Assembly: GCA_963780985.1 (NCBI GenBank)
Contig: CAWAEF010000003.1
Coordinates: forward strand, 110,693-174,692
Length of the DNA: 64,000 nt
Direction of reading: 5' to 3'
Origin: an uncultured Alphaproteobacteria bacterium
GTDB taxonomy: Bacteria; Pseudomonadota; Alphaproteobacteria; JAGOMX01
Both the position numbers and the translations under genes were made by a program. Below are positions 17,764-34,790 of this stretch, piece after piece (position 1 is the first letter of the stretch; every line of letters starts with the position of its first letter). The notes under the pieces are model-generated. The model did no database searches. It was given only the letters and a program-made list of their open reading frames with translations, and was not told the DNA's origin.

Positions 17764-19405
17764 ATGATTATAAAAACATTAATAATATGGAATGATTCTC
17801 AAATGTCAAAAGAGACGGTTAACCCAGGAATTCCGCAAATCTTGATGGCTAAAGGCTTTCTGTCAAATGATCAATTCGCAATTGTCAAAAAGGAGCGGGA
17901 AAAAACCGGAAAAAATTTTTCGCAGACGCTGGTTGCTTTGGGTTTTATCAGCGAGCAATCCCTCAATCAGATCGTTGCGGAGCATGGCGGCTTTACGGCG
18001 CTCGATCTTTCTTCCACATCCCTGGATCATGAGCTAATTAAAACCTTGCCAAGACACATCGCGGAGCAAAGGCAAATGATACCGGTGTCCATGGAGGGCA
18101 GTAACCTTTTGCTGGCATTGGTGGATGTATATGATTTGCGGGCGCTGGATCAGGCTCGGAAGTATTTTCCCCATTGTACCCTGCAACCAGTTCTGACCAA
18201 CAGCGCACAACTGAAAGCTGCCATCGATCGTTATTACGGCTATGAACTTACCGTCGACAAATTGCTGAAGGAAATTGAGAGCTCAAATGTGGCCCTCGAG
18301 GGCGAAACAACTTGGGTCAGTCCTGTTGTCCGTCTTGTTGAAACGCTTTTGATCCATGGGATTAAATTGGGAGCCTCCGACGTTCATTTTCAGCCAGAGG
18401 AGAGCTTTGTTCGCGTAGATATCGCATCGATGGCATCTTGCAACAGCACTGCGTCTTCCACAAGTCCTATTGGTCCGCTATCTGTGTGCGCCTCAAGGTT
18501 ATATCTGATCTAAATCTAGCTGAATCACGACGACCCAAACGGGACGCTTAAGCCTGATGTACGGCTTGCGTGAGGTCGACTTTCGCGTTTCTTCACATCC
18601 TACGGTCTATGGCGAAAGCATCGTCTTGCGTATCCTAGACAAACAACATTCCATCAGGTCTTTGGAGCATCTAGGCTTCAACCCGGAACAAGTGGCGAGC
18701 CTTATCCAGCAGATCAAGCAGCCTCAGGGTTTGTTTATTATTACGGGCCCAACAGGATCGGGTAAGACCACCACCCTTTACTCGATTTTGCAGTACCTTA
18801 ACAGTTCCTCACGCAACATTATGACCTTGGAGCAGCCTGTGGAATACCGGCTGCCTATGATTCGACAGTCAGAAATCCGGGAGATGAGCAAGACCACCTT
18901 TGCCGACGGTGTCAGGAGCCTTTTGCGGCAGGATCCGGACATCATCTTCATCGGCGAGGTGCGGGATGAGGATACGGCTCAGATGGCCCTGAGAGCGGCT
19001 ATGACGGGGCATCTCGTGTTTACGACCTTGCATACCAATGATAGCGCCAGCGTCATTTCTCGCCTTCGGGATCTGGGGCTCAAACCCGGCATGGTGGCGG
19101 ATTACCTCGTGGCCTCGGTCTCCCAGAGATTGCTACGGTTGCTTTGTGCGAATTGTGGAGGAGATGGTTGCCAGGACTGTCATCACACTGGATTCAAGGG
19201 ACGGCAAGCAGTGGGGGAGATACTGGTCTTTAATGCGACCCTTAAAGACCTGGTTGCAGAGGGCGCATCCCCTAGCCTTTTGCGCAAAGCCGCAACGGAA
19301 CAGGGGTTCAAGCCTATGGCAGCGGTGGCGCAGGACATGATTGACAAGGGACTCACCACAAGGGATGAAGTGGATTTCCAGCTGGGGGCTGCTCATGGGG
19401 AATAG
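17764..19405 (+). pseudogene. GspE/PilB/MshE-family secretion ATPase with a T2SSE_N domain, interrupted by frameshifts near 18.43 and 18.54 kb.
   Basis: The N-terminal T2SSE_N-like domain is in 17764..18513. Walker A GPTGSGKTTT and the C-terminal tetracysteine CANCGGDGCQDCHHTG are in 18557..19405. The conserved RIDG.../AESRRP segments read in a third frame between the two ORFs. Confidence 0.75.
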
Positions 19406-20599
19406 GCTTTACACCTATAAAGCGGCCGCCCATGGGGGAGAGATTATTCGCGGCAGCGCCCTTGCAACGGATGCTCAAGCCCTTTACCAGCAGTTGCGGG
19501 ACCAAAACCATTTTCTTATCTCCACCAGGGTCAAAAGAGGTCTGTTGACGGGCTTATTTAAGACCAAGGTCACGCCTCAGGAACTCTTTGATTTTTGCCT
19601 ACATATGCAATACATGGATCAGGCTGGGGTACCGTTGCTGGATGCGCTCCTGGATGCGCAAAGCTCGAGCACCAAGCTGAAACCTGTGCTGGCAGATATG
19701 ATCACACAGATTAAAGGTGGCAGGATGCTATCGGAGACGATTGCTAGCCACAAAGATACTTTCCCGGATATGTTTCAACCCATTATCTATCTGTCCGAGC
19801 AATCGGGTCAATTGGCCAAGGTTTTAAAACCCTTTATGAGCACCTTTCCTGGAAGGAACAGAATAAGCGCCAGCTGAGCAAAAGTCTGCAATACCCAGCG
19901 ATGGTCTTTGGCCTGATCTGTGTGGTGATGTGGATGATGTCGGTGGTGGTGGTGCCACAAATGTTTGATCTGATCAAGATGAGCGGCGTTGAAGTTCCCT
20001 ATTCTACCAGGTTGCTGTTAGATATAAATCAGGGGCTTGTGCAATGGGCACCACGAGCGTTAATGCTTGGCGCCTGTGGTCTGTTGTTGATCATGGGCCT
20101 GCGTTTTCTTTCCTTGAGTCATAAACTGCGCCAGGATCGGCTGTTATTGAAGGTCCCATTTATCGGACAGTTGTTAGTCAAGCGCGATTTGGCCATGTAT
20201 CTTCACTTTTTTCATGTGTGCCTTACGTCTCATATAGACTTGTTGGAGTGTATGGATTATGGCCGTAAAGCTGTGCGTAATTGTTGGCTTCAGGAAAGGC
20301 TTGCGGCTTGTGCCAAAGCCGTGAGAGAAGGTTCCACCTTGTCCAAAGCGATGCAAAATGCGGGTATTTTTGATGCCTCTACCTTGCGCATGGTTCAGAT
20401 CGGCGAGATCACAGGGCATCTGACAGCGCTTTTGGCCGTGCTGGAAAATTATCATGTGCGTGATTTAAAACGACAAATCGAGCGTTTTCTCACCTATCTT
20501 CAGCCTGGCTTGTTGGGTATAATTGGCCTGATGTTAATCTGGATTGTGGTGGGGATATTCTATCCTCTATACGACCAGTTGTTGGTAATAGAAGGGTAA
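19398..20599 (+). pseudogene. GspF/PilC-family inner-membrane platform protein with a frameshift in an A-run near 19829-19832.
   Basis: The N-terminal half is MGNRLYTYKAAAHGG...QSGQLAKVLK. The C-terminal half is MVFGLICVV.... The alternative frame reads KTLYEHLSWKEQNKRQLSKSLQYPAMVFGL continuously if one extra A is inserted in gttttaaaaccc. Confidence 0.75.
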
Positions 20600-22362: not shown

Positions 22363-22712
22363 AAAGATTCCTGATTTTAGTTGCCCTTTCTTCCCCGGCT
22401 TTCGCTGCGGAGCCCTTCTCTCTTTTCCTGACCGAAGATGAACAATCGCGTTTTAACAAAGATGTAAACATAGGCGCCCTGACCCACTCATCCAACCGGG
22501 TGTCTTTAAAAGCCATCATGATGATGGATGAAGCCAACTGGACCATATGGCTGAACGAACACAAAATCACGCCAGATTCCTGTCCGGAACATGTTCAGGT
22601 CGTGTCAGTCTCACCCGCTGAGGTCGAGCTGATTTGGAGCAAAGAAATGGAGCCACGGACCATATCATTGAAGATCAATGAATCCGTTGATTTGGAGAGT
22701 CTTGACCCATAA
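22359..22712 (+). CDS. Small secreted protein (PilP/GspC-like position in the cluster).
   Basis: Signal peptide MKRFLILVALSSPAFA. Overlaps the previous gene by 4 nt. Confidence 0.35.
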   Translation: MKRFLILVALSSPAFAAEPFSLFLTEDEQSRFNKDVNIGALTHSSNRVSLKAIMMMDEANWTIWLNEHKITPDSCPEHVQVVSVSPAEVELIWSKEMEPRTISLKINESVDLESLDP

Positions 22713-22732
22713 GAATATGCGGGTAGCTTTTT

Positions 22733-22754
22733 AGGCCTAAGAGGCCTGTTTTGA
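22733..22754 (+). terminator. Putative rho-independent terminator (aggcctaagaggcct followed by gtttt).
   Basis: A 6-bp GC-rich stem followed by a T-rich tract 20 nt after the stop at 22712. Confidence 0.35.
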
Positions 22755-22979
22755 GTTCTGTGGAAATCATTTCCACATTTATTGGTAGGATGCTGAGGAT
22801 TTCACCGCATAATCGGACATTTTGATTTCTGCAGCACTCGAATATATCCTTTTCATGACTTTCATCTTCCATTCTTGTTCAGATTCTTATTTTTGCCTTC
22901 TGCAGAAAACAAAATATTGCTTTTGGAGGCAGGATGTGGTATCTATGTAGATACAGACCTCAAACATCGGAAATAATTA

Positions 22980-23216
22980 ATGGTCGAAATTTTCGGATCA
23001 AAGGACCTAGGAAACATCATCAGGGACTTGCGCAAAAGGGCAGGTTTATCCCAGGAAGCACTTGCGGAACTTGCGGGACTCAGCCGTACGGCTGTGCAGG
23101 CGCTGGAGGGTGGCAAGGAAACGTGCAAATTAATTACTGTGTTTAAGGTCGTGAAGATTTTGAACATTCATGTTCACTTAAGCCACCCACTGATTAGGGA
23201 TATGCCCCATGAATGA
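22980..23216 (+). CDS. hipB: XRE-family HTH protein, HipB-like.
   Basis: LRKRAGLSQEALAELAGLSRTAVQALEGG is a classic HTH_XRE. The gene lies immediately upstream of the split HipA-like genes and overlaps them. Confidence 0.75.
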   Translation: MVEIFGSKDLGNIIRDLRKRAGLSQEALAELAGLSRTAVQALEGGKETCKLITVFKVVKILNIHVHLSHPLIRDMPHE

Positions 23217-23565
23217 ACGTATCCCTACAGAAGGGAACTACAAGCGTCGCTTGCTTATCACATGTCATGGGGTCCCGTGCGGGTATTTTATTCAAACCGA
23301 GAACAATGAATATTCCTTTACCTACTTTGAAGATTATCGGGGCCCTCCCATATCTTTAACCATGCCGGTGCGGTCTGAACCTTACACCTTTAATCGGTTT
23401 CCGCCCTTTTTTGACGGATTGTTGCCAGAAGGCATACTGCTGGAGGCTCTCATTCGGCAGAATAAAATTGATGCCCATGATTACATGGCGCAGCTAGAGG
23501 CCGTTGGAGCCGACATGGTGGGGGCGGTAACTGCCTTGCCTGATTCTATGAAAAAGGGGAAATGA
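23209..23565 (+). CDS. hipS: HipA N-terminal-subdomain-like protein, HipS-like.
   Basis: FPPFFDGLLPEGILLEALIRQ matches the HipA N-terminal motif FFDNLLPEG. 118 aa. Its stop overlaps the next start in ATGA. Confidence 0.65.
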   Translation: MNERIPTEGNYKRRLLITCHGVPCGYFIQTENNEYSFTYFEDYRGPPISLTMPVRSEPYTFNRFPPFFDGLLPEGILLEALIRQNKIDAHDYMAQLEAVGADMVGAVTALPDSMKKGK

Positions 23566-24518
23566 TGCGCTGCCCCATTACTTACGAGGAACTTCTTCCC
23601 GGGGAAGAGAAATATAGCGCGGCTGGCTTAAAACGCTTGTCGCCGAATCTCAAGACCTTGAAAGATTTTCCCTATACCATGGAAGAACAGCTGCGAGAGG
23701 CAAATCGCTTAGCTTCTAAACTCTCCATTCAAGGCGTTCAACCCAAACTGAGTGTCGTGCTTGATGTAACCCATGAAACATTTAAGATCACCGATAAGGG
23801 CGGAACCTTTATCCTAAAACCACAAAACCCCCAATGGAATAGCCTGCCCGAAAATGAGGACCTGACCATGCGCCTGGCTGCGCTGGTTGGGATTGAGGTG
23901 CCTCTGCATGGTTTGCTGTACTGCAAAGACGGCGCCTTGAGCTATTGGATCCGCCGCTTTGATCGTCCATCCTTACGAAATCCGACAAACGTAAAGCTAA
24001 GCCTGGAAGATTTTGCCCAGCTGAGCCAAGAAGACCGCCAAACAAAATATAACAGCTCCATGGAAAAGGTGGCCAAAGTCATCCGCGAGTTCTGCTCCTT
24101 CCCCATTATGGAATTAGAAAAGTTGTTTAGGTTAACCATATTTAACTTTGTGGTCGGGAATGAGGACATGCACCTGAAGAATTTTTCGTTAATCACCAGG
24201 GACAACCTGATATCCCTATCCCCGGCCTACGATTTACTTAATTCCACTCTCGCCATGGGCACTGGAACACGGGAGGAAATAGCTTTATCTCTTAATGGGA
24301 AAAGGCAGAAACTGAAGGCAGAAGATCTGATAGATACCTATGGTATTGAACGATTAGAGCTACGCCCTAGTACCGTCAACAAGATCCTGCAGACGATAAT
24401 TGAGGCTCAGCCTCTATGGATAGAACTTATAGACCGAAGCTTCCTGTCGCAAGCGCAAAAAGAGGGCTATAAATCCATTATCCATGAGAGGTTGGAACGG
24501 CTCTTGCGGAACAAGTAA
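23562..24518 (+). CDS. hipT: HipA-family kinase core, HipT-like toxin.
   Basis: P-loop-like GVQPKLSV and catalytic motif VGNEDMHLKNFSL, which matches GNxDxHxKN of HipA. 318 aa. Confidence 0.75.
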   Translation: MMRCPITYEELLPGEEKYSAAGLKRLSPNLKTLKDFPYTMEEQLREANRLASKLSIQGVQPKLSVVLDVTHETFKITDKGGTFILKPQNPQWNSLPENEDLTMRLAALVGIEVPLHGLLYCKDGALSYWIRRFDRPSLRNPTNVKLSLEDFAQLSQEDRQTKYNSSMEKVAKVIREFCSFPIMELEKLFRLTIFNFVVGNEDMHLKNFSLITRDNLISLSPAYDLLNSTLAMGTGTREEIALSLNGKRQKLKAEDLIDTYGIERLELRPSTVNKILQTIIEAQPLWIELIDRSFLSQAQKEGYKSIIHERLERLLRNK

Positions 24519-24537
24519 CCTAAAGCCCATAAATAAT

Positions 24538-26136
24538 CTATTTCCTCTTGGTGTAAAAGTTATCTTCGTTTCTACCCCATATGGAGAACTGTGCCCTTGC
24601 GTAGGCAAATGGATCACCAATTCTGAATCTTTTGGCCTCTTCGTGGAAGCGCGGATTATCGTGCAGATAACGATGCACATCAAGATCAGCAGGCACAACT
24701 ATTGGCCTTTCAGTATGTAGCTTTCCTTCCGCAATTCCCCAGGTGACGTATTGGTAAAGAGCAAAAGATACGGGATCGAGATTGAAACGCGGAGCATCTC
24801 TGAGGATATCCGGGTACAATTCAATGTATGCATCGGCACAGAAAAACTTAGGCAGCTTAGCCTTCCGGTTGTCGTCAAGCGCGACCAGCAGCGCTGGGCT
24901 GATGGGAGCAAGTACCGGATCCGGAACAGACGGCATCCCAGGCGCTTTAATTTGAGCTGGCACAGCGTTATTATGAAGCAGGTCTATTTCCTTCACACAT
25001 CTAAGCCATGCCCGAGTGGGATGTAAGAGCCCCTGCCCCCAATGCCGCGCTCCCTTTGCGTCATAAGATCCTGGCTTTAAAGCAGATGAGAGCATAAAGC
25101 GTTTGATGTCGACCATACTCAGTTCAGGGAAGAGGTGACTTAGAGCCTGTACCACTGTAGTTCCTTTAGGAGCGCTGTGAGAAGTCCCTGTATGAACTGA
25201 ACTGTTAAGCGTAAGGGCATGCTCAGCACACAGGACATGATCCTGTAAATCACCGGCTCGGTTTGAATAGCTAGCCATTCTCCAATCATAACCATGTTCT
25301 GGCCATGCTTTGGGAAGAAGTTCAGCAGCAGATACAAGAAGAACCCGCTTCAACAAGTTTCGGAACTTCAGAAGAGCACTGGTTATATCTACATACCCAA
25401 CATCCAAGCGTTGGCCCTGATAAGGGGCATAGTCCAGGTTGCTGTCCATTTCACAACCTTTATTGCCAAGAGCTTTAACCAGCAACATATCATTATCATC
25501 AAGAATCTTGGCAAATCTATTGACGTCTGCATCCAGTGTAGCCATGCTGAAGACCATCGCCATAGACATATTGATGACCCGAGGTATGGGCTTACCCTGA
25601 CGCTTATATCGCTCTATAGTCGCCTCGATTCCATCCATCACGTATTTATTAATCGTCGACATACCGCGCTCACCATCTTCGGTGAGCTCGCGCCGAGGTG
25701 AGCTTATAAAAGGAATAACTGTCGCACCGGCTGCCATAGGCGCATAAATAGAAAACTTGCCCTTTCCCGCAGCAGCGCACGACACGGTCGCCCCATGAGC
25801 GATCATGCCCCTGTGGCTATTAAGACGAGCCAATATGGCGGGATGAACATCATAATTAACATGATCAATGCCACTGAATGCAACATCGAGAACAATCATA
25901 GAGGAGCCATCACCTTTAACACCCCCGCTTCTGAAATGCTCAATGTCTTGGATGTCCGGCAATTCTGCCGCCTGCCGAAGGAAGTCAGGGTCAAGAAGTT
26001 TGGGATCCAGCCTAGCACGCCGCTCGCGGCCAAGGTCTTGGGGATTATCATTACTGCATGCAAAGCTTGTACTTGGGACCAGACAAGCGGCAATAGCTAG
26101 GATAGCAAGATATACTTGCAGTTTAAATTTTAACAT
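24538..26136 (-). CDS. Lipoprotein with a divergent subtilase (S8)-like domain and two C-terminal family repeats (fourth member of the repeat family).
   Basis: Signal peptide and lipobox-like LVPSTSFAC. Candidate Asp/His/Ser motifs VLDVAF, AHGATV and HTGTSHSAP (GTSxxxP). C-terminus FFCADAYIELYPDILRDAPRFNLDPVSFALYQYVTWG...YARAQFSIWGRNE. Confidence 0.55.
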   Translation of the reverse strand: MLKFKLQVYLAILAIAACLVPSTSFACSNDNPQDLGRERRARLDPKLLDPDFLRQAAELPDIQDIEHFRSGGVKGDGSSMIVLDVAFSGIDHVNYDVHPAILARLNSHRGMIAHGATVSCAAAGKGKFSIYAPMAAGATVIPFISSPRRELTEDGERGMSTINKYVMDGIEATIERYKRQGKPIPRVINMSMAMVFSMATLDADVNRFAKILDDNDMLLVKALGNKGCEMDSNLDYAPYQGQRLDVGYVDITSALLKFRNLLKRVLLVSAAELLPKAWPEHGYDWRMASYSNRAGDLQDHVLCAEHALTLNSSVHTGTSHSAPKGTTVVQALSHLFPELSMVDIKRFMLSSALKPGSYDAKGARHWGQGLLHPTRAWLRCVKEIDLLHNNAVPAQIKAPGMPSVPDPVLAPISPALLVALDDNRKAKLPKFFCADAYIELYPDILRDAPRFNLDPVSFALYQYVTWGIAEGKLHTERPIVVPADLDVHRYLHDNPRFHEEAKRFRIGDPFAYARAQFSIWGRNEDNFYTKRK

Positions 26137-26258
26137 AACAACACCTGTACTAAATAATCATATACACTTTATATATATGGACGAGGTATTGCTTTGTCAA
26201 GGATTATTGGGGTTTTTTTGACAGAACTAATGCCCCGGTTGAGGGGGCACGAGCCATT

Positions 26259-26549
26259 TTAATGATGCAGAGCTTTCTGCACAACATCGGGAGCATAATT
26301 AATCACCTTCAATAACACCCGAGAGGCTCCGCTCGGGCGACGTCGTTTTTGTTCCCATTGCTGCAATGTACGCAGTTGGAAACCGAATTCTCTGGAGAAT
26401 TGTTCCTGAGTCATATTATTCTTCTTACGAATTTGGCCTACGTCAAAATCCTCAACAATAACTGTGCGTCTGTTGAGAGTAATTTCTCCCCGCACATCTG
26501 CCAAAACCTCTTCCAGACCGGCTATAAGCCTTTTTCCAAAGTCGCTCAT
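26259..26549 (-). CDS. HigA2/COG2944-like HTH antitoxin-type regulator (orphan).
   Basis: MSDFGKRLIAGLEEV...MTQEQFSREFGFQLRTLQQWEQKRRRPSGASRVLL, 96 aa. No intact toxin gene upstream. A MITE lies 140 bp upstream. Confidence 0.55.
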   Translation of the reverse strand: MSDFGKRLIAGLEEVLADVRGEITLNRRTVIVEDFDVGQIRKKNNMTQEQFSREFGFQLRTLQQWEQKRRRPSGASRVLLKVINYAPDVVQKALHH

Positions 26550-26689
26550 AATTTTTCTCCTATGCTATTGAAGGCAAACTCCTGTCTTCGGAATTCAAGA
26601 TACTCCATTGGCGTATATTTTGAAGTCTAATCTCAGCAAAATACAGGGCCTACTCATGAAAACGAAGCATATGAAGGGAAACACGTAGC

Positions 26690-26826
26690 TGCCAGCTTGC
26701 CTCCCCTTGATGCGCAGGGGTCCAGCCCTTAAAATGTGCTGCGTAGCAGCTCCGAAGAAAATACAGAGTCGCTACGCGACGCATTTTGCGCTGGACCCCT
26801 GCTTTCGCAGGGGAGACAAGCTGGAG
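26690..26826. repeat. MITE-like palindromic element, family B, copy 1 (~135 bp with nested hairpins).
   Basis: ccagcttgcctccccttgatgcgcaggggtccagccc...gagtcgctacgcgacgcattttgcgctggacccctgctttcgcaggggagacaagctgg. Three more copies lie at 34.1, 35.4 and 41.7 kb. Confidence 0.65.
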
Positions 26827-26878
26827 CTTTGTGCACTTTTAATTTTTATGCGTAGGCGCTGTAGCAAAATGCCCCATC

Positions 26879-27676
26879 TCACTTCTTCCCCCGCTCCGCA
26901 AGCGGGTGATTAAAGGCAGGTGGCTGAATGGCGTTGTTTTGTTGTGGAGCCGCTGATGGCTCTTTACATGGGGACTTACCATAAATGCCCATCAGATTGC
27001 GGGCCGTAACCCATTTGACGATTTGTCGGAAGGGTTTACCGCTTTTGTCGGCGCCGTAGGGTTGGTCGTGGAATACTAGTGTTCCGCTGCAGTTGACTTT
27101 TTCTTCGGGGCTCATTGACTCGCTTGGAATGCGTTCTGTTCGTTCACCGGTAAAAGCCCCTTGCCCGCTGGGTCCGTGGCTGATGAGAACCAGGGCGACA
27201 AAGTCTTGGGACCTGTCATGGTTTTGGGGATAGATCACTTCACCTTTAACTTTCAAGGTTATTGGGGACCTAGGTGACTTTCCGCAGAACTTATTGGTAC
27301 CGGAGGGGCTCGGAAGCGAATCGATGAAAACTGGGATAGCATAGGTCATATAACGGCCAAAGCCGTCTTTGGCTTGGGATTCGGTCAGGCCTAGCGTCCG
27401 ATAAGGCACGATGCCGACAGCCTTGTTAGGTTCCGTGACCGTCTCGGACTCCCCTTTCTTGGAGGGATCTGCGGGACCGGGCAGCTCGCCCGTCATTACC
27501 AGATAAGAGGCCACCGCTTGGGTAACCAGTTCTTGTCGCTCTTTGGTTTCCCGCAGGCTCGCCTGTTGGCGATAGCGCAGCAAAGAGGGCATCGCCGCCC
27601 CCAGCACGAGCCCCATGACGATCAGGACGATCGCCAACTCAAACAGTGAGAAACCAGCCCGGGCATGATTTTTCAT
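26879..27676 (-). CDS. Type IV pilin / pseudopilin-like protein with a large C-terminal domain.
   Basis: Prepilin leader MKNHARAG followed by FSLFELAIVLIVMGLVLGAA (G-F-S-L-x-E motif). A C-terminal Cys pair is present. Start placed at the internal Met at 27676. Confidence 0.65.
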   Translation of the reverse strand: MKNHARAGFSLFELAIVLIVMGLVLGAAMPSLLRYRQQASLRETKERQELVTQAVASYLVMTGELPGPADPSKKGESETVTEPNKAVGIVPYRTLGLTESQAKDGFGRYMTYAIPVFIDSLPSPSGTNKFCGKSPRSPITLKVKGEVIYPQNHDRSQDFVALVLISHGPSGQGAFTGERTERIPSESMSPEEKVNCSGTLVFHDQPYGADKSGKPFRQIVKWVTARNLMGIYGKSPCKEPSAAPQQNNAIQPPAFNHPLAERGKK

Positions 27677-34219: not shown

Positions 34220-34451
34220 GTGACAAACGTCACTCCACCACCCTTCGAGTCAATTCTCACACTTACCGTCATTCAAGCACAGCTGGACAACAATTCCAAC
34301 TAGTTTTATATATATAGATAGGGGCGCTAGTTATCTCGTTTTTTTGCTAATCTTTTCTGACTCTTCCCTTGCAATTTCTTAAGAAAACATTATATAATAT
34401 ATATGTCAGGAAACTGACTATGGCGATAAACGTCTTATGGAATAGGCGATG

Positions 34452-34790
34452 TGGACCCGGGGGCGGTACCCGGCGCCTCCACCAAAAATGGTCACGATGT
34501 GACCCTTTCTGTGGGGGCGAAATAGGATCGACACGCGTAATAAAGATATGATTTTTGCTCGGTAGGCACCACCGTTATCGGACCATTGTTATAAGTGCAA
34601 ACTTTAACTTTAAAAACTTGGCTATGGGTCAGGATAATTTCGCTACTGCAGCTGCAGCCGCTTAATTGTTAGACTAAGCCAGCGGTCGGGGGCGCCGGGC
34701 AACAGAAAGCCCCCACTTATTTATGTGCCTGCCCAAGGGGAAGTTAATAACGCCCGAGTGGGCGGCACTGTTATATGCGAACTAAAGAGT
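34452..34790 (+). ncRNA. ssrA: Circularly permuted (two-piece) tmRNA gene. The acceptor piece ends in CCA at 34481-34484, a ~28-nt intervening hairpin follows, and the coding piece starts with GGGGGCG at 34513. The 3' boundary is approximate.
   Basis: The 5' GGGGGCG (34513-34519) pairs with the upstream CGCCUCC+ACCA to give a 7-bp acceptor stem with a G3·U70 wobble (the Ala identity element). T-stem CCGGG/CCCGG. AGGATCGAC resembles the conserved GGAUUCGAC. An in-frame tag ORF ...(A)NFNFKNLAMGQDNFATAAAAA ends at TAA 34663-34665. The SspB-like gene follows immediately. Confidence 0.55.

Follow-up and report, generated by a model that had tools for sequence, protein, structure and literature searches.

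A very probable HipBST toxin-antitoxin operon of the Legionella pneumophila type in an uncultured alphaproteobacterium

HipBST operons are tripartite, split-kinase toxin-antitoxin (TA) systems. The described system closest to the locus analyzed here is HipBST of Legionella pneumophila (Lp; Lpg2368-Lpg2369-Lpg2370; PDB 7VKB, 7VKC, 7WCF, 8EZR, 8EZS and 8EZT), and the mechanism proposed below takes its experimental basis from the work on this system. HipT(Lp) has been found to be toxic to Legionella and Escherichia coli through its kinase activity, and it is HipS(Lp), not HipB(Lp), that neutralizes it both in vivo and in vitro. Binding of HipS(Lp) displaces the phosphate-binding loop (P-loop) of HipT and blocks ATP binding, HipB(Lp) binds both promoter DNA and HipT, phosphorylation of S54 leaves the kinase of HipT(Lp) on, and TrpS and GltX give no rescue from the toxin (10.1101/2022.11.26.518041, its journal version PMC10653801, and PMC9325769). 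The HipBST system of E. coli O127:H6 (Ec; PDB 7AB3-7AB5) likewise employs HipS as the antitoxin, HipB as the repressor and neutralization through the P-loop, and is characterized by Trp65 of HipS, the S57-I-S59 motif of HipT and the target TrpS. In the HipBA system of E. coli K-12, only two genes are present, HipB is the antitoxin, the target is GltX, and a single protein, HipA, corresponds to HipS and HipT together. Here, a three-gene locus at positions 22980-24518 of a 64-kb stretch of DNA (the window; contig CAWAEF010000003.1 of assembly GCA_963780985.1) from an uncultured alphaproteobacterium is compared with these systems. There is little doubt that this locus is a chromosomal type II TA operon of the L. 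pneumophila-type HipBST family. It falls within the subclade of the L. pneumophila type, not the E. coli O127 type, so that the tryptophan plug and the TrpS target of the E. coli system are not transferable to it; this refines the first-pass annotation of the window, which had been made from the letters alone and had proposed a hipB-hipS-hipT-like locus.

Three overlapping genes and their products

The locus consists of three co-directional genes on the forward strand, in the order hipB-hipS-hipT and with overlapping open reading frames (ORFs), as in L. pneumophila. The first gene, hipB (22980-23216), encodes a 78-aa XRE/Cro-type helix-turn-helix (HTH) protein, presumably a DNA-binding autoregulator and not the antitoxin; hipS (23209-23565) encodes a 118-aa putative antitoxin homologous to N-subdomain 1 of HipA; and hipT (23562-24518) encodes a 318-aa predicted Ser/Thr kinase toxin, which comprises the HipA core kinase without N-subdomain 1. 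These coordinates and lengths are exactly, to the base, those that had been annotated. The overlap between hipB and hipS spans 8 nt (CCCCATGAATGA), compared with 4 nt in L. pneumophila. The hipS/hipT junction reads GGGGAAATGATGCGC and contains the 4-nt ATGA stop/start overlap that had already been pointed out, and a Shine-Dalgarno-like AGGGG is located shortly 5' of the hipT ATG.

Domain calls at the Pfam gathering cutoffs (22.5 bits for Couple_hipA and 30.5 bits for HipA_C) assign HipT to HipA_C (E 1.5e-46, 159 bits), HipS to Couple_hipA (E 1.9e-24, 86 bits) and HipB to HTH_3 (E 2.3e-10). The best solved-structure match of each of the three proteins is its counterpart in L. pneumophila HipBST, which bears out the annotated reading of the locus as hipB-hipS-hipT. 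HipT matches HipT(Lp) (8ezr_B) with an E-value of 5.7e-97 over residues 1-314 versus 1-308 of 312, HipS matches HipS(Lp) (7vkb_B) with an E-value of 1.8e-32 over residues 13-108 versus 2-97 of 102, and the best match of HipB is HipB(Lp) (8ezt_A, E 4.5e-12). The similarity to the E. coli O127 proteins is remote: the HipT score falls from 328 bits against the Legionella protein to 102 bits against the E. coli one (E 3e-28), and HipS matches its O127 counterpart with an E-value of 1.2e-10. Among the solved structures, full-length HipA is more distant from HipT and HipS than the O127 proteins are. HipT and HipS are each approximately 54% identical to their Legionella counterparts, as calculated with L. 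pneumophila sequences that were transcribed from printed alignments and lack the last few residues. The nearest named relatives of HipT come from an alphaproteobacterial metagenome-assembled genome (MAG; 75% identity) and from Odyssella and a Paracaedibacteraceae MAG (59-61%).

The residues to which experimental work on HipT(Lp) has assigned a function are retained in the HipT of the window. These are S55 (S54 in HipT(Lp)), the P-loop autophosphorylation site; Q57 (Q56), also in the P-loop; K62 (K61), K86 (K85), H204 (H199) and N207 (N202), which are involved in ATP binding; the catalytic D202 (D197), which coordinates ATP; and D224 (D219), which binds Mg. Each of these eight residues is present in 79-80 of the 80 sequences of the family, which were collected from related loci in species-representative genomes. 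One additional residue, K40 of the L. pneumophila protein (PMC9325769), was not used: the transcribed sequence has D40 at this position. The annotated motifs are also in place, namely PFFDGLLPEG at residues 66-75 of HipS, and VQPKLSV and VGNEDMHLKNFSL at residues 59-65 and 198-210 of HipT, respectively. The P-loop motif of HipT is S55-I56-Q57, with the single serine of the Legionella type (SVQ or SIQ in Legionella) instead of the S-I-S of E. coli, and HipS, like HipS(Lp), lacks tryptophan altogether, with I76/L77 at the position occupied by I65/M66 in HipS(Lp) and by W65 in HipS(Ec). Together, the absence of tryptophan from HipS and the single-serine P-loop place the locus in the Lp subclade.

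HipS differs from its L. pneumophila counterpart by an 11-aa N-terminal extension: the alignment column that holds the start methionine in 96% of the relatives is occupied by Lys12, residues 1-12 being encoded by 23209-23244. The HipS ORFs of two alphaproteobacterial relatives (L002 and L004) are likewise long, at 117 aa. With HipBA of E. coli K-12 and Shewanella oneidensis, the locus shares the kinase fold, the catalytic motifs, an HTH-type HipB and multiple palindromic operators (candidate ones in the window), which in K-12 are, unlike those of the window, of the TATCC-N8-GGATA type with 5-nt repeats.

By analogy with the Legionella orthologue, HipT would be a HipA-family Ser/Thr kinase that arrests growth through phosphorylation of a cellular protein. 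HipS, the detached N-subdomain 1 of HipA, is predicted to bind HipT and to expel the P-loop from the active site; with ATP thereby kept from binding, HipS would act as the antitoxin. HipB would be a dimeric HTH repressor that does not neutralize HipT and instead occupies the three 18-bp candidate operators that lie at even intervals in front of the operon, where it might also hold HipT, and the HipS-HipT complex, on the DNA and thereby provide autoregulation. The stop/start overlaps of 8 nt and 4 nt would couple the translation of the three genes.

HipA-like kinases are also found among candidate anti-phage systems. The PADLOC candidate-defence model PDC-M03A is matched in part (1.5e-11) by residues 99-229 of the protein encoded by hipT (23562-24518), and a defence role is conceivable for the HipT clade. 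The NCBIfam and PADLOC searches assigned no specific family.

HipB and the putative operator array

The spacer upstream of hipB is 267 bp long and holds three 18-bp imperfect inverted repeats that are candidate HipB operators. The distal site (22752-22769, TGAGTTCTGTGGAAATCA) differs from the pattern TGANTTCTNNAGAANTCA by one mismatch, and the middle site (22823-22840, TGATTTCTGCAGCACTCG) and the proximal site (22894-22911, TGCCTTCTGCAGAAAACA) by two mismatches each; the proximal site is located 68 nt upstream of the hipB ATG and sits within a longer palindrome, TTTTGccTTCTGCAGAAaaCAAAA (22891-22914). The pattern was derived from the relatives L002 and L004 and not from the window itself. Within the 64 kb, these three sites are the only ones that match it with at most two mismatches, with 0.36 expected by chance and none of the 100 shuffles reaching three. 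Start to start, the sites are 71 bp apart, that is, 18 bp followed by 53-bp gaps. Comparison with the strains L082-L085, approximately 99% identical to the window, was uninformative for footprinting, and more distant relatives were used instead: the spacing is 71 and 71 bp in L002, 71 and then 72 bp in L003, and 72 bp in L027, and across the window and these three loci the intervening DNA cannot be aligned.

The hipBST locus of Legionella has three 18-nt operators with 53-bp gaps, which are bound by HipB in electrophoretic mobility shift assays (PMC10653801). The candidate sites of the window conform to this upstream layout, and the match is one of layout only; the half-site differs, being TGAnTTCT..AGAAnTCA in the window versus TTACTG-N6-CAGTAA in L. 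pneumophila. A possible novelty of the array was considered and rejected; it is absent from the preprint (10.1101/2022.11.26.518041), but has been described and validated in the journal version. Similarly, a 12-nt direct repeat, TTTTGNNTTCTG, present in four copies, was discarded as a repeat family, because it corresponds to the left half of the 18-bp palindromes together with the adjoining flank.

Throughout the family, the region upstream of hipB is strongly enriched in palindromes. In 75 loci, 349 palindrome centres were detected there; coding DNA contained 8, the downstream regions 21 and shuffled sequences about 18. In a survey of 420 nt upstream of hipB in loci L005-L081, most members were found to use TTACTG-N6-CAGTAA, with 143 sites upstream of hipB versus 12 elsewhere and typically three per locus. 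The start-to-start spacings of operators in the family are 61-62 bp (14 cases), 70-72 bp (51 cases) and 81-82 bp (2 cases), and these classes differ by approximately one helical turn of DNA, a phasing that suggests a requirement for all three sites to lie on one face of the double helix.

The sequence of the candidate operators co-varies with that of the HipB recognition helix. In all five loci that carry a TGAnTTCT-type site, the helix reads G-L-S-R-T-A-[IV]-Q (GLSRTAVQ in the window), and in each of the 51 loci with at least two TTACTG-type sites it reads G-[VLI]-G-K-T-x-x-[FY]-D (GVGKTxx[FY]D in L. pneumophila). This co-variation supports the identification of the sites as HipB operators. 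The balance tips slightly in favor of a scenario in which an alphaproteobacterial subclade has re-specified the HipB-operator pair within a conserved three-operator scaffold, the operator changing from TTACTG-N6-CAGTAA to TGAnTTCT-nn-AGAAnTCA and the helix from G-V-G-K-T-x-x-[FY]-D to G-L-S-R-T-A-[IV]-Q. Such a change points to HipB residues 35, 36, 40 and 41 as the ones that read the DNA and nominates them as testable specificity determinants; which residues of HipB do so is a question left open in the published work on Lp-type systems. The three-operator layout across phyla, the spacing steps of a helical turn and the co-variation of helix and operator extend modestly beyond PMC10653801, which reports only the form with 53-bp gaps (71-bp spacing), in Legionella.

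Another palindrome, GTATCTAtgTAGATAC (22939-22954), a perfect 7+7 repeat, lies between the proximal candidate operator and hipB. Its sequence is unrelated to that of the three candidate operators, and it is unique in the window; a match with at most two mismatches arises in 8 of 100 shuffles. A weak promoter-like match (22948-22977) overlaps it with the first of its hexamers, and no conserved counterpart was recognized in the relatives. This palindrome could reflect promoter overlap or chance.

Alternative readings and the hipS/hipT split

Several observations weigh against the assignment to the L. pneumophila-type HipBST family or against parts of the mechanism proposed for the locus. No NCBIfam model was passed by any of the three proteins: the only match of HipT in this collection is a weak one to YjjJ, and HipB, with 62.4 bits against the TIGR03070 model (couple_hipB, Y4mF antitoxin), is related but stays below the cutoff of 71.65 bits. 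An identity of approximately 54% to the L. pneumophila proteins leaves room for a different target or a different regulation. The start of HipS is a predicted one, placed 11 codons 5' of the methionine that is usual in the family and is replaced here by lysine. The distance between the proximal candidate operator and the start codon is 68 nt, compared with 24 nt in Legionella, and a promoter and terminator scan of 22500-24900 returned matches in numbers that shuffled sequences also reach, among them four promoter-like ones versus 3.9 expected, none of which fits the hipB start, and no convincing sigma-70 promoter; the distance and the lack of such a promoter in the scanned region make the way in which repression works here uncertain. 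Finally, the presence of frameshifted genes nearby might signal some decay of function.

The last point leads to the alternative that survives best, though it too is unlikely, namely that the locus is an inactive remnant, with ORFs that are intact by chance and a TA function that has been lost in a decaying, possibly host-associated genome. This would agree with the pseudogene-like breaks within 5 kb, with the deviation of HipS from the family at 5 of 33 conserved columns, compared with a median of 1 in the relatives, and with an orphan antitoxin-like HTH gene 1.7 kb downstream that has no intact partner. However, all the catalytic, ATP-binding and P-loop residues of HipT are kept, and the protein deviates at only 3 of 87 highly conserved columns (W129, S179 and T259), in each case conservatively and in a number equal to the median of the relatives. 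The deviations of HipS are either features shared by its clade or conservative changes, the candidate operator array is intact together with the matching recognition helix of HipB, and near-identical strains differ from the window by a single HipT residue in 271-290.

An operon of the E. coli O127 type, in which TrpS would be the target, the double serine of the P-loop would exert control and a tryptophan of HipS would block the kinase, is less probable than a remnant. The three-gene architecture is alike, and the similarity to the 7ab3 and 7ab4 chains, albeit weaker, is significant. Against this stand the single-serine S-I-Q motif, the absence of any tryptophan from HipS, with I76/L77 at the respective position, and the scores given above (328 versus 102 bits for HipT), as well as the failure of TrpS and GltX to rescue cells in the Lp system.

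Equally improbable is the possibility that HipT is a secreted, host-directed effector kinase, as was first proposed for Lpg2370. That protein has been described as a Dot/Icm effector (PMC9325769), and the closest named relatives of HipT include Odyssella, Paracaedibacteraceae, Legionellales and Chlamydiae, which are amoeba-associated lineages. Nevertheless, in the experiments of Lin et al., translocation did not exceed that of the negative control and yeast showed no toxic effect (10.1101/2022.11.26.518041, PMC10653801), members of the family occur widely among free-living Bacteroidota and Desulfobacterota, and a full TA-type operon with putative autoregulatory operators is present in the window.

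The first-pass annotation had offered a recently split hipA as the alternative to a HipBST operon, in view of frameshifts that it had noticed elsewhere. Such breaks do exist in the window. The T2SS-F-like gene (19341-20599), named after the type II secretion system (T2SS), is split at about 19877/19901 into ORFs of 178 aa and 232 aa; compared with three strains that are approximately 99% identical (L082-L084), in which the gene is a single 400-aa ORF, one C is missing at 19815, and the break reflects either a genuine pseudogene or a sequencing error in a homopolymer. The T2SS-E/MshE-like ATPase gene (17764-19405) is split at 18513/18557, with 249 aa in the MshEN part and 282 aa in the T2SSE part, and encodes one product of 534 aa in L083. 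These frameshifts are real features of the window assembly. Since the hipS/hipT junction is shared by strains whose T2SS-E and T2SS-F genes are intact as far as the contigs extend over these genes, the frameshifts are unrelated to the split between hipS and hipT.

The position of the split was examined by alignment to HipA. A profile of the 80 HipS sequences aligns to residues 4-103 of E. coli K-12 HipA, that is, to N-subdomain 1, and the HipT profile aligns to residues 198-409 with an offset of about 106, which puts the break at approximately HipA residue 105, after N-subdomain 1. That the break should coincide with the natural HipS/HipT boundary had been suggested as a check, and it does: the Met1 residues of HipT and HipT(Lp) are aligned with each other, as are residues 13-108 of HipS and residues 2-97 of HipS(Lp). 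In the solved Legionella structures, HipS(Lp)-HipT(Lp) superposes on HipA like one chain (Lin et al., 10.1101/2022.11.26.518041, PMC10653801).

The split is a property of the whole family. The related loci span Bacteroidota, Legionellales, Chlamydiota, Desulfobacterota, Alphaproteobacteria and other groups, and 79 of the 80 have hipB, hipS and hipT in the same order and on the same strand, the remaining one (L054) being cut 90 bases upstream of hipT. The hipS/hipT overlap is 4 nt long in 59 of these 79 loci, with overlap lengths that are approximate, the starts of the relatives having been set by maximal ORFs, and stops that are exact. The 120 best homologues of HipT in a large protein collection are all 247-325 aa long and contain HipA_C only, with no HipA-length protein among them. 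The same junction recurs in other data. An independent assembly (L001, from Logan, run ERR11630400) matches 22374-26743 of the window at 100% identity (4370 bp), including the junction, and strains with approximately 99% identity from other samples (L082 from ENA, L083 from JGI and L085 from Logan) share it as well. A single HipA of about 440 aa with N-subdomain 1 fused to the kinase is not encoded at this locus, where the two parts are in two frames with a stop between them, and the locus is therefore not a two-gene HipBA. The hipS/hipT split is thus natural and old, and not an artefact of the frameshift-prone window assembly. A frameshift, nonsense mutation or assembly error that cut the toxin gene of a two-gene hipBA, suggested only by the broken T2SS-F and T2SS-E genes nearby, can be practically dismissed given the residue-for-residue coincidence of the break with the division between HipS and HipT in the solved Lp structures, the identical split in all 79 assessable relatives, the lack of HipA-length proteins among the best homologues, the junction shared with strains whose T2SS genes are intact where covered, and the Shine-Dalgarno-like sequence that hipT has of its own.

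Genomic neighborhood

The locus extends the Lp-type HipBST clade, an already characterized family, to an uncultured alphaproteobacterium, an affiliation indicated by the transfer-messenger RNA of the window and by the nearest named relatives of HipT. In the 80 distant loci, hipBST does not adjoin any of the genes that neighbor it in the window, a pattern consistent with a mobile cassette; synteny across these loci gave no functional clue, and GC content marks no island at the locus. In three of the related loci, a second Hip-like module lies within 3 kb of HipBST: L027 has a second hipB/hipS-like pair, and L043 and L055 have additional HipA_C-like ORFs. These arrangements recall the HipBA_Bu locus, which is close to a HipBST_Lp homologue (Lin et al., 10.1101/2022.11.26.518041, PMC10653801).

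The genes upstream of hipBST in the window form a cluster resembling those for type II secretion or type IV pili. Downstream, a gene on the reverse strand (24538-26136), convergent with hipT and 19 nt from its stop codon, encodes a protein of 532 aa with a lipoprotein-like N-terminus and a weak match to subtilases (Peptidase_S8, 1.1e-05). It is followed by a gene for a 96-aa HTH protein, also on the reverse strand (26259-26549), with weak matches to MqsA/HigA-like antitoxins. No intact toxin ORF was found beside this gene, the region upstream of it (26550-26880) containing short, stop-interrupted frames, and it may be the orphan antitoxin of a degraded second TA module. Farther downstream, at 34365-34717 on the forward strand, the window contains an alphaproteobacterial two-piece (permuted) transfer-messenger RNA, which scores 235.8 bits where the gathering score is 50.

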